Virus record (IMG/VR): IMGVR_UViG_3300002220_000288
Coordinates: 1-64,000 of that record
Length of the DNA stretch: 64,000 nt
Strand: one strand, 5' to 3'
DNA from: a virus
Taxonomy: Duplodnaviria; Caudoviricetes
A program made the translations under genes and the position numbers. Of this stretch, positions 2,567-12,038 are shown piece by piece. The notes beneath the pieces are model-generated. The model saw nothing but the letters and a program-made list of their open reading frames with translations. It was not told the origin of the DNA and did no database searches. The number at the start of each line of letters is the position of its first letter. The stretch's first letter is position 1.

Positions 2567-2769
2567 AGATAAACCAAATACCCCTTCCGCTACATCTATT
2601 CCTAAACATTGCGCGAACCGTCCCAGATACAGAACTGGACATATCCAAAGAACTAATACTAGCGTTCTGCCTCGGCATGGATTACGGAAGAAATTTCAGC
2701 GACTCGCCCAGCTACTTCAGAGAGATCGCAGAAAAGCTGGCTAAAGAGGGAATAGAAGAAACACAATGA
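2563..2769 (+). CDS. Hypothetical protein
   Basis: ATGA-coupled on both sides. Confidence 0.6.
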   Translation: MKINQIPLPLHLFLNIARTVPDTELDISKELILAFCLGMDYGRNFSDSPSYFREIAEKLAKEGIEETQ

Positions 2770-5615
2770 AACTACGCCAATACCAGAGAGAAGACTTGGT
2801 TAAGTGCCAGATGGATATCATGGCTGGCCGAAATAGAAACCTGATCGTTTGGGCCACTGGCTTAGGCAAGACTGTCCTCATGGCTCATATCGTCGGCAGG
2901 CTCCGCAAGAAGCGTGCCTTGATTATCGTCAACAGAGAGGAACTGGTATGGCAGACAGTTGATAAAGTGAGGGCGTCCTACCCGGAGCTAACCGTAAGCG
3001 TGGAGAAAGCGGAGCATCGCTCAACTCCCGAGTCTGAAGTCGTCGTGGCTAGTATTCAGACAATCGGATCAACGCGGGAAGAGACGGACGGGACGCCTAT
3101 TTTTAGCGAAAGGCTCAAGTCAATAGACCCGGATACGTTCGACATAATCATGGTTGATGAGTGTTTCGTCGCCGGGACACTGATCGACGGCAGGCCGATT
3201 GAGTTAATCAGGCCGGGTGATCTTGTTAGTTCATTCAACCACGAAGCCAAAACGGAAGAACTACGCCCAGTCGTTAGGCTGTTCAAGAGTAAGCCTTCAT
3301 CTCTAATGACAATAAGCCTGTCCAATGGGCAAAAGATCACATGCACCGAAGAACATCCCTTTTTTGTCAACGGCGAATATGTTCCTGCCAATCGCATCGC
3401 GTACAATGATATACTTACTCTATGCGACAGCAAGGAAGAGGAGAACCGTGAAGCCAAAGAACTGCTCAGTCTGCGAGAAGACGTACATGCCAAGATCATG
3501 GAACAAAAATATGGTTCCATACTGCGGAGAGGACTGCAAGAAGGTAGCGAGGGAGGCCCGAAGGAAAAGAGTCTACATGAACTGCCAACACTGCAACAAA
3601 GAAGTGGAGTTGTCAGGGAAGGGTCTGTTGAAGCAAAAAAACGCGGTATTCACTTGTTCGAAAGAGTGCGACAAGGCGGTTCATTATCTTCGCCACAAGA
3701 AAGGCGGGGAATACCTAGCGGAATACAACCGGAAGTATGCTTCAGAGAGAATGAAGAAACAGAATCCCATGCACAAAAAAGAAATCAGGGATCTCGTCTC
3801 AAAGAAGCTTACAGAAATGGGGCACAAGCCGAGAATCCAAGGCGGGAACGGTCACGGGTTAACAGCAGCAGAAGAGAAGATCCTTCACGGATTGGCCACA
3901 TGTACGACACTAAAACTATCGCCTCAGTATCCATACAGAACAATGACCGGACGTTCAAGTGGATACCCGACCCACTACAAGATCGACGTGGCTATTCCAG
4001 AACTAATGATAGCAATCGAAGTGGACGGGAATTCTCATTGTGCGATATCAAGGCAAATTCAAGACAGAAAGAAACAGGATTTCCTAGAACAGCGAGGGTG
4101 GTCGGTATTGAGATTCACGAACAAACAAGTGATGGGACATTTGGAGGAATGTGTCCAGGTGGTTTTGTCTACAATTTCGAGGTTGAAGGAAACAACAACT
4201 ACTACGCCAACGGAGTACTAGTACACAACTGCCACAGAGCTAGTTCTGACACGTTCAGAAACGCCTTGAAATACTTCAAAGTTTACCTTAGCGATGAGCG
4301 GTATAACGATGAATCTAAGATACTTTTCGGACTGACCGCAACGCCGAATCGCTCCGACAACAAAGGGCTTAACGAGTTCTTTAACAGAATAACCGCCAGC
4401 CGAGACATTCGATGGGGCATCCAAAACAAGTATCTGACCGACATCGAGGCGTACCGAGTAGAGACAAGGGTTGATATCTCTGACGTTAAGATAACTGCCG
4501 GAGACTTCAATCACAGGCAGCTTGAGAAGAAGATCAACACTCCGGCCCGGAACGAACTGGTAGTAAGCAAGTATATCGAGATTACGGGCGGAAACAAGAA
4601 AGCACTATTCTTCACACTCGACATCCAGCACGCAGAGGATTTAGCAACAGAGCTAAATAACCAAGGTGTAAAAGCAATGGCTGTTTCCTCAAGGACAAAA
4701 GCAGAAACGAGGAAAGAGATATTCCAGATGCACAAAAGCGGCGAGATACTAGCCCTTACCGGGGCCAACATATTCCTCGAAGGCTATGATGATCCGACAA
4801 TAGAAGTAGGCTGTATGGTTCGCCCTTTCCGCTCCGGCCTTATCTATCGTCAGGCCGTTGGGAGAGTGCTTCGCCCTTGCCCTGCCCCGGAGACGCTGAA
4901 CGCAATGCGGGAAGCCGGGAAAGAACCTGACTGGATTAAAGACACGGCCATCATCATCGACTTCGTTGACGTTTCCTCCCGGCACAACCTGATATCTGTT
5001 CCAACCCTGTTTGGCCTTAATCCAAAGATAGACACCAAAGGCAAGAGGCTGGAAGAGTTCACGAAGGACTTGGAAAACCTAGTCGATAAGCTGCCGGATA
5101 AGATCAAAAAGAAAACCAACCTTGAAGAGATCGAAGACCCGACTACTTTGACCGGGATTATCGAGAAAGTCGATCTAGTATCCATCCCTGAGACGCCCCA
5201 GGAAGTAGGGAAGTGCTCTGATATGTCGTGGATAAAGAAAGACGACACATACATCCTCAATATGCCGACCAGAACCATGACTGTCAGGCCGAACTCGATG
5301 GGGATGTACGACGTTAAGATAAACATGAATGGGGTCAGTTCTTTCGCAGGGGTTGGCAGTACGCTAGAAGAGGCTATCAGCAAGGCGGAAAAGCGGCTGA
5401 CCTCGGAAGAGAAGAAAGCTGGCAGTAGTAGCGCGGCCTGGAGAGGGAACCCTGTATCCGACAAGCAGATCGCCTTACTTGCCAAGATAGATAGAAGTGG
5501 CGTAGCGAAGATGAATGGCGATATAAATAAATACAAGGCTGTTCTTCGCCACTCCATGAACGCTGGACAGGCTCAAGCCTTGATATCTTCATTACTGGCT
5601 AAAAAGAGGATTTGA
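2766..5615 (+). CDS. SF2 DExH helicase (ResIII/UvsW-like) precursor containing an intein
   Basis: LRQYQ Q-motif, ATGLGKT Walker A, DE/CH motif II split by the intein, LTATP motif III, EGYD motif V, QAVGRVLR motif VI. Confidence 0.92.
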   Translation: MKLRQYQREDLVKCQMDIMAGRNRNLIVWATGLGKTVLMAHIVGRLRKKRALIIVNREELVWQTVDKVRASYPELTVSVEKAEHRSTPESEVVVASIQTIGSTREETDGTPIFSERLKSIDPDTFDIIMVDECFVAGTLIDGRPIELIRPGDLVSSFNHEAKTEELRPVVRLFKSKPSSLMTISLSNGQKITCTEEHPFFVNGEYVPANRIAYNDILTLCDSKEEENREAKELLSLREDVHAKIMEQKYGSILRRGLQEGSEGGPKEKSLHELPTLQQRSGVVREGSVEAKKRGIHLFERVRQGGSLSSPQERRGIPSGIQPEVCFRENEETESHAQKRNQGSRLKEAYRNGAQAENPRRERSRVNSSRREDPSRIGHMYDTKTIASVSIQNNDRTFKWIPDPLQDRRGYSRTNDSNRSGREFSLCDIKANSRQKETGFPRTARVVGIEIHEQTSDGTFGGMCPGGFVYNFEVEGNNNYYANGVLVHNCHRASSDTFRNALKYFKVYLSDERYNDESKILFGLTATPNRSDNKGLNEFFNRITASRDIRWGIQNKYLTDIEAYRVETRVDISDVKITAGDFNHRQLEKKINTPARNELVVSKYIEITGGNKKALFFTLDIQHAEDLATELNNQGVKAMAVSSRTKAETRKEIFQMHKSGEILALTGANIFLEGYDDPTIEVGCMVRPFRSGLIYRQAVGRVLRPCPAPETLNAMREAGKEPDWIKDTAIIIDFVDVSSRHNLISVPTLFGLNPKIDTKGKRLEEFTKDLENLVDKLPDKIKKKTNLEEIEDPTTLTGIIEKVDLVSIPETPQEVGKCSDMSWIKKDDTYILNMPTRTMTVRPNSMGMYDVKINMNGVSSFAGVGSTLEEAISKAEKRLTSEEKKAGSSSAAWRGNPVSDKQIALLAKIDRSGVAKMNGDINKYKAVLRHSMNAGQAQALISSLLAKKRI
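3162..4229 (+). mobile_element. Intein (356 aa) inserted within the DECH motif of the helicase
   Basis: Block A CFVAGT, block B TEEHPF, block F VYNFEVEGNNNYYANG, block G VLVHN followed by Cys+1; splicing restores MVDE-CHRA. Confidence 0.93.
3448..4221 (+). CDS. Zn-finger + Vsr/DUF559-like PD-(D/E)XK endonuclease (putative homing endonuclease) nested in the +1 frame of the intein
   Basis: CSVC..YCGEDC and CQHC..CSKEC fingers; YKIDVAIPELMIAIEVDGNSH..DRKKQDFLEQRGWSVLRFTN; GTG at 3448 preceded by AAGGAAGAGGAG (frame open from 3325). Confidence 0.85.
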   Translation: MKPKNCSVCEKTYMPRSWNKNMVPYCGEDCKKVAREARRKRVYMNCQHCNKEVELSGKGLLKQKNAVFTCSKECDKAVHYLRHKKGGEYLAEYNRKYASERMKKQNPMHKKEIRDLVSKKLTEMGHKPRIQGGNGHGLTAAEEKILHGLATCTTLKLSPQYPYRTMTGRSSGYPTHYKIDVAIPELMIAIEVDGNSHCAISRQIQDRKKQDFLEQRGWSVLRFTNKQVMGHLEECVQVVLSTISRLKETTTTTPTEY

Positions 5616-11202: not shown

Positions 11203-11416
11203 TGTTAAGCTGAAGGACGTTTGCAAGGATCGCGTTTATTGGATAAAGAAAAACGGCAAGTGGAAACTTTGCTCGTACATGGAGCACGATTACCCGGATG
11301 GAACGAGTGGGTACTTTTTCGATCTCAGAAACCACGTCAAGATTTTCAACTTCGATAAGATTGAAAGAATAGTCGAAGTCGATGAGCCAGCCGATGCTAC
11401 TGAAATATCTCGATGA
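11195..11416 (+). CDS. Hypothetical protein between primase halves
   Basis: Overlaps both neighbours. Confidence 0.5.
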   Translation: MRDVKLKDVCKDRVYWIKKNGKWKLCSYMEHDYPDGTSGYFFDLRNHVKIFNFDKIERIVEVDEPADATEISR

Positions 11417-12038
11417 GTTTAAGGAAAACTTGAGGAGGAACGCGCACATTCATGAATACCTCATCAATAGGGGGTTGTCTGATGAAACGATTGAAGAGTT
11501 GGAGATTGGCTATGCAGGCAGGATTAGCGACAGCTATATGTACCGTTTTAGCGACAGGGTGATGTTTCCGATATTCAACGCGGCTTGCGACTTGATTGCG
11601 TTCGGCGGAAGGACACTAGGGCAAGACGAGAGCAAGTATATCAACTCGCCAGAAAGCCCTTTGTATTCTAAGTCTCGCACTCTCTACAACTTAGACAAGG
11701 CGCAAGACCATATCCTTGACATGGGTTACGCTATTGTCGTCGAGGGGTATTTTGACGTAGCTGCTTTGTGGGAGTGCGGTATCAGAAACGTTGTTGCTAC
11801 TTGCGGGACGGCAATGACTAGACATCAGTTGAGGCTATTGAAGCGGTATGCTGATTGGGTTGCGCTTTGTTATGACGGAGATTCCGCTGGCTCTCGTGCC
11901 GCATTGCGTGCGGCGGAAGGATTAGCCGAAGAGCGGTTTCCGATCAAAGTGGTCACACTCCCGGATGGGATGGACCCGGATGATTATGTTCAGAAAAACA
12001 GTGGAGTTGATCTAATGAGGCTTGTCAATGGAAGATAA
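11382..12038 (+). CDS. dnaG: DnaG primase catalytic core + TOPRIM
   Basis: RFSDRVMFPI, AFGGR, KYINSPE, VVEGYFDV, TCGTA, YDGDSAG, DPDD. Confidence 0.9.
   Translation: MSQPMLLKYLDEFKENLRRNAHIHEYLINRGLSDETIEELEIGYAGRISDSYMYRFSDRVMFPIFNAACDLIAFGGRTLGQDESKYINSPESPLYSKSRTLYNLDKAQDHILDMGYAIVVEGYFDVAALWECGIRNVVATCGTAMTRHQLRLLKRYADWVALCYDGDSAGSRAALRAAEGLAEERFPIKVVTLPDGMDPDDYVQKNSGVDLMRLVNGR

Follow-up and report, generated by a model that had tools for sequence, protein, structure and literature searches.

A contiguous phage helicase intein with a putative Vsr-like homing endonuclease gene nested in its +1 frame

The window analyzed here, which comprises the first 64 kb of a 97.5-kb phage contig carrying terminase, major head protein, ribonucleotide reductase and primase genes, contains a helicase gene interrupted by a contiguous intein whose middle part is read a second time, in the +1 frame of the same strand, as an intact Vsr-like nuclease gene. 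Both frames are open and under selection, and the last ∼135 nt of the nuclease gene are constrained in both of them. We consider it probable that this locus represents a selfish two-frame element, in which a splicing intein, an internally initiated nuclease and homing are combined.

The host gene (2766–5615, plus strand), which is preceded by Erf-like and exonuclease genes and is open over its entire length, encodes an SF2 (ResIII/DExH) phage helicase precursor of 949 amino acids including the intein (PF04851, E = 4e-24; PF00271, E = 6e-8; phrog_16 DNA helicase, E = 1e-64). The intein itself (3162–4229, plus strand; 356 amino acids) was recognized by PF14890 (E = 7e-13), by TIGR01445 and TIGR01443 and by its invariant columns, and is inserted in the Walker B motif of the helicase (DE/CH, the slash marking the insertion point). 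Its ends (CFVAGT...VLVHN/C) and key residues, namely C1, T62 and H65 of block B (TxxH), H355-N356 and the +1 Cys, are those of a class 1 intein, and the empty allele of a close relative (L182) joins at the same point (DE/SH), as expected for a precise in-frame insertion. All coordinates given in the original prediction of this arrangement proved to be correct.

In the AlphaFold model of the intein frame, a confident Hint domain (pLDDT ∼89–98) is formed by residues 1–90, the N-terminal half or IntN (3162–3431, plus strand; pLDDT >90; Foldseek intein matches, E = 2e-5), and residues 309–356, the C-terminal half with blocks F and G (4086–4229, plus strand; pLDDT 89–97; TIGR01443), and its structural matches are inteins such as Ssp DnaB and gp41-1. 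Between the two halves lies a stop-free linker of ∼218 amino acids in the helicase frame (3432–4085, plus strand), which was modelled as one helix (residues 92–125) followed by a low-confidence remainder (pLDDT mostly 44–59 past residue 125), and a Pfam search found no nuclease match in the intein frame. This linker is a by-product of the nuclease gene. Judged from its motifs and from the interrupted Walker B motif, the intein would be spliced out. With its DUF559 match in the +1 frame only, the element is not a canonical full intein carrying an in-frame endonuclease, and with 0 stops it is not a fractured gene, in which the host frame stops after IntN and restarts before the C-terminal half (IntC). 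It has the two features of a non-canonical intein, i.e. a contiguous open intein frame with an unstructured middle and, in a different frame, an endonuclease ORF that is intact and subject to purifying selection. No second copy of the helicase or of the nuclease was found in the phage's own 97-kb genome. An antisense ORF was also seen at 3056–3520. Elsewhere in the window, a DnaG-like primase appears as two ORFs, a CHC2 zinc finger (PF01807; 10561–11202) and a 218-amino-acid catalytic part (phrog_6444; 11382–12038), and very large ORFs of 1781, 1498 and 3014 amino acids on the minus strand (24555–50251) probably encode virion proteins.

The nested ORF (3448–4221, plus strand; 257 amino acids), for which 162 homologues were found among the matches listed, had been proposed to encode two Cys clusters, a NUMOD3-like helix and a complete DUF559/Vsr-like nuclease. 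HMM searches of both frames returned intein matches for the helicase frame and DUF559 for the +1 frame (E = 6e-10, residues 176–243), and both Cys clusters are present. NUMOD3, in contrast, had no Pfam match in the +1 protein and was absent from the top 25 families of 120 homologues, so that this part of the proposal was not confirmed. The description of the domain as complete stands for the structure, since the model (pLDDT 92) completes the Vsr-like fold, but not for the HMM match, which covers only positions 43–108 of 109. The encoded protein consists of two Cys4 modules, a helical linker and the Vsr-like domain. The Cys4 modules (CxxC..CxxxC; residues 6–30 and 46–73; 3463–3666, plus strand) are putative zinc modules of treble-clef/MYM-like type according to their motifs, with weak matches only, to zf-FCS, DUF2116, ZMYM and L24e. 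In the catalytic domain (residues ∼140–248; 3865–4191, plus strand), D180, E191, H197 and D206 are invariant and D193 is nearly so among 120 homologues, and Foldseek matched the model to the DUF559 protein 3hrl, to the homing endonuclease I-Bth0305I and to Vsr, as expected for a Vsr fold with conserved acidic residues and a histidine. The fold (3r3p for I-Bth0305I, TM-target 0.70–0.77; 1cw0 for E. coli Vsr) and the D..ExD..H..D pattern are thereby shared with Vsr-like (EDxHD) nucleases, although I-Bth0305I is intron-encoded (PDB name 'mobile intron protein') and its sequence similarity to the nested nuclease is weak (E = 0.015). The +1 ORF is a putative homing endonuclease that probably spreads the intein.

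When the nuclease was recoded synonymously in 20,000 trials and stops were counted in the helicase frame, a mean of 10.5 stops was expected compared to none observed, and not a single recoded sequence (0/20,000) was free of stops, in support of the proposed dual coding and of a selection that keeps the host frame stop-free. The third frame is full of stops. Compared with L002, a relative with a full intein, the nuclease frame had a dN/dS of 0.21 over 3448–4086, as opposed to 0.91 for the helicase frame, i.e. across the linker, whereas the exteins and IntN gave 0.04–0.09 in the helicase frame. In 13 disjoint pairs, the wobble peak moved from intein position 3 within IntN (0.33) to nuclease position 3 (0.34–0.37), was damped in the overlap (0.11/0.04/0.12) and returned to intein position 3 past the nuclease stop (0.35). 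A T-ending codon before AA, AG or GA was found in 0 of 6358 cases, compared to 23.5% before other codons and 19.8% in the exteins. Across 124 elements, the intein frame contained 0 stops vs 1132 expected and the third frame 1415 vs 1020 expected, the family count being partly circular in that loci had been classed as open, with only 3 of 154 same-frame loci excluded for stops. Taken together, the homologue tests of stop avoidance and dN/dS support constraint on both readings: the nuclease sets the sequence of the middle part while avoiding T-ending codons before AA, AG or GA. A decaying relic, i.e. a +1 pseudogene beneath a host frame kept open for helicase function alone, is very improbable in view of the low nuclease-frame dN/dS, the intact catalytic residues and the confident model, even if a mini-intein relative shows that the nuclease can be lost.

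At the 3′ end of the nuclease gene, the two readings are both structured. Within 4086–4221 (plus strand), the intein C-half strand and block F are encoded by the same DNA as the last strand and helix of the nuclease (Hint strand, residues 309–319; nuclease, residues 219–248), with strands present in both models and, as originally predicted, motifs of both frames from 4092 onwards, where RGWSVLRFTN of the nuclease overlaps ARVVGIEI of the intein. Over this stretch, only 2 of 135 positions differ from L002 vs ∼20% in the flanks, and wobble is damped in both frames in the 13 pairs. Since the last ∼135 nt are used by both proteins, the +1 register is probably locked. A broader gradient was also seen relative to L002 (window 3766–4166), the 3′ half of the nuclease gene differing by 1–6% and the 5′ half by 22–24%; this low 3′-half divergence may reflect a recombination or conversion tract on top of constraint.

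Regarding its expression, the nuclease is likely to have its own start by internal initiation, as independent translation had been proposed in the original prediction and as signals in the DNA suggest. The start codon is GTG 3448 in the window and ATG at the equivalent codon in L002, and it is preceded by a putative Shine-Dalgarno sequence (AAGGAAGAGGAG; 3432–3443, plus strand) with an anti-SD duplex of −9.1 kcal/mol, compared to +1.0 for the ATG at 3406. GAGGAG lies 4 nt from the GTG, a short spacing, and AAGGA 11 nt from it, a long one, which counts against internal initiation at this codon. In 114 of 118 homologues a start codon lies near the IntN end, these starts are SD-enriched family-wide (P = 9e-7), and an upstream +1 stop is found at most 30 nt from the start in 60 homologues and at most 9 nt in 27. 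Frameshifting is common in phages, and the open +1 frame reaches back to 3316, far into IntN, where it also contains a weaker ATG at 3325 besides that at 3406; the nuclease could hence be made by a programmed +1 ribosomal frameshift as an N-extein/IntN/nuclease fusion without initiation of its own. We judge such a fusion to be quite unlikely, because the GTG/ATG swap affects one and the same SD-preceded codon, because SD-enriched starts near the IntN end are found in nearly all homologues and because the nearby +1 stops leave little room for a frameshift. The SD at GTG 3448, the ATG in L002 and the SD-enriched starts just past +1 stops therefore favour internal initiation over frameshifting. 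No hairpin occluding the nuclease ribosome-binding site in the style of fractured genes was detected (z = 0.57), nor was an internal sigma-70 promoter 5′ of the nuclease, promoter and terminator counts being at chance.

Close relatives of the helicase gene exist as three alleles, with a full intein (window, L001 and L002), with a 142-amino-acid mini-intein (L005) and empty (L182). The inteins of the window and of L001 differ at 2 of 1060 nt and the adjacent exteins at 17 of 546 (P = 7e-7), and a difference was also obtained for IntN alone against the N-extein (P = 0.006). An intein closer than its exteins fits a recent transfer, while its high identity is in part due to dual constraint and not to recent homing. 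In the mini-intein, block F is still preceded by the long loop whose counterpart in full elements underlies the last helix of the nuclease, which suggests that the mini-intein arose via nuclease loss. L002 (1–2916) and L005 (2694–4218) are located at opposite ends of the 102.7-kb contig IMGVR_UViG_3300044825_001003, and their helicase versions, nearly the same for the first ∼300 nt, diverge after that; they are probably two strain alleles from one sample joined at the circular overlap of the assembly. The empty allele (L182, 1615–3390) has Ser at the +1 position (DESH), where the intein-bearing relatives have Cys (DECH).

These alleles bear on whether the nuclease, if expressed, homes this intein or has been domesticated (competitor exclusion, repair) or acts on another target site. 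Free-standing homologues exist, and around the site many third positions are different in the empty allele, both of which would suit a nuclease that does not home. We nevertheless regard this as unlikely, because the sporadic full, mini and empty alleles and the higher similarity of the intein relative to its exteins fit homing, and because the nuclease travels with the intein across SF2 helicases, UvrD, a Strawberry-notch-like helicase and terminase.

For the survey of the family, 120 nuclease homologues were used to fetch 160 more loci, the family being larger than the loci listed. Among the matches listed, 150 of the 172 loci with a nuclease match have a contiguous intein with a +1 nuclease; 10 have one intein half only, mostly due to contig ends, 8 have no intein and mostly a free-standing nuclease, 3 are split by stops and 1 has the nuclease in frame. 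At 90% identity, the contiguous elements form at least 126 clusters, one of which is the in-frame case, giving at least ∼125 distinct +1 elements. They are mostly inserted at DE/C of helicases and otherwise in UvrD, Strawberry-notch-like and terminase genes, the terminase label being by inspection only for L006 and L008, whose host protein had no Pfam or PHROG match. The same layout is present in the cultured phages Vibrio CP-T1, Vibrio 1.194.O and Corynebacterium phi673, in which only the helicase-frame CDS is annotated.

A true in-frame Vsr-like intein (L165) does exist, which speaks for the possibility that the window carries an ordinary in-frame endonuclease intein disrupted by assembly or sequencing frameshifts. 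This is extremely improbable, as the original prediction had argued, because the same register recurs in other assemblies and in cultured isolates, because the distinct +1 elements are so many and because indels cannot resolve the overlap region. In both L001 (94% nt identity) and L002 (80% nt identity) the two frames are open without any indel in the intein, and these independent assemblies already refute such an error.

The in-frame locus (L165, 2012–2950) has its DUF559/Vsr-like endonuclease in the intein of a UvrD helicase, where the loop leading into block F is short, and is the in-frame state predicted by published models. 'Fractured' members, in which the frame stops past IntN and a Met precedes IntC, are seen in L126 (1709–2665), L144 (2173–3150) and L171 (2167–3171), the last with one stop only. 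Free-standing nucleases without an intein lie directly 5′ of helicase-like ORFs (Walker A-like motifs by inspection) in L125, L141 and L142 (nuclease ends at ∼1836, ∼1607 and ∼2930, respectively). In a nuclease tree built by a quick method (114 rows, 125 columns; resolution too poor to order the states), split and free forms are scattered among contiguous ones, and they may have one origin. The original view of the layout as an intermediate between contiguous and split inteins thus holds insofar as split forms exist, but the contiguous form is the stable majority state among the matches listed and the tree gives it no direction.

Contrary to the original statement that no characterised example was known, contiguous inteins with out-of-frame endonucleases had already been published, on computational rather than biochemical grounds (10.1101/2025.01.02.630785; 10.64898/2026.09.14.751524). 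Gosselin, Arsenault and Gogarten (10.1101/2025.01.02.630785) described contiguous actinobacteriophage inteins with antisense LAGLIDADG, antisense Vsr-like and frame-3 EndoVII-like genes, which resemble the present element in their unstructured in-frame middle, their out-of-frame endonuclease, Vsr-like ones included, and the proposed invasion by a free-standing gene. Their Vsr-like genes are antisense and their sense type is EndoVII-like, whereas the nuclease described here is Vsr-like on the sense strand in +1, and hence not of their 'anti-sense VSR-like' subtype. Moreover, helicase is not among their host genes, which encode polymerase, minor capsid, terminase and thymidylate synthase, and their second ORF is said to lie typically outside the splicing domain in a layout called rare, while here the ORF extends into the C-terminal half of that domain and the layout is the norm. 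The cyanobacterial dnaX intein of Phillips et al. (10.64898/2026.09.14.751524) likewise has a sense overlapping endonuclease ORF, a putative SD, frame-dependent dN/dS and empty, mini and full alleles together, but encodes a LAGLIDADG enzyme in +2 within a bacterial dnaX gene rather than a Vsr-like one in +1 within a phage helicase. Fractured genes (Dassa et al. 2009, PMC2677866) share a same-strand Vsr-like gene between intein halves whose 3′ end overlaps the C-intein, by 6–69 bp compared to mostly 90–140 nt here; they differ in having a 27–51 nt non-coding spacer, absent here where the host frame is unbroken, and NUMOD3 in place of the zinc modules detected here. The ShiLan insertion in phage methylases (PMC11855218) is similar in that it reportedly lacks in-frame stops and hides an out-of-frame endonuclease, but carries an HNH nuclease and is not recognisable as an intein. 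No paper on a sense +1 Vsr-like helicase intein family was found in the literature searched, outside which most subscription papers fall, and what goes beyond published work is that the Vsr-like gene lies in the sense +1 frame, that it overlaps the C-terminal half of the splicing domain and that the layout is prevalent.

These observations are consistent with a model in which the helicase mRNA would be translated through the whole intein, the Hint halves folding around a largely disordered linker of ∼220 amino acids, and the intein would be excised by the class 1 Cys/Asn/Cys route with restoration of the DECH motif. On the same mRNA, ribosomes would start internally at GTG 3448 and produce a free-standing 257-amino-acid zinc-module and Vsr-like endonuclease, which is predicted to act on co-infecting phages by cutting helicase alleles that lack the intein close to their DExH codons, break repair then copying the intein into the cut allele. 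As for its origin, a free-standing Vsr-like gene may have inserted into a mini-intein where endonucleases usually reside, and a version without stops may then have given rise to the large family that occupies Walker B sites in helicases and terminases of phages. Whether these points combine into a single reading is in our judgement evenly balanced: the intein lineage would be large and for the most part lack annotation, and each of the two domains would need the ∼135-base overlap to be complete, such that the +1 register is locked and the overprinted state is a stable, actively homing end point rather than a brief intermediate, from which split, mini and free-standing forms derive by simple loss.

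Overall, what has been described in print as a rare layout is the usual condition in a widespread family of phage inteins, the nuclease of which is missed by annotation. The element represents a naturally occurring example of dual coding over ∼770 nt, in part of which two folded domains have codons in common. Because full, mini, empty, split, in-frame and free-standing states occur in one family, which is also carried by the cultured phages CP-T1 and phi673, the models of endonuclease gain and intein splitting put forward by Dassa and by Gosselin become directly testable.
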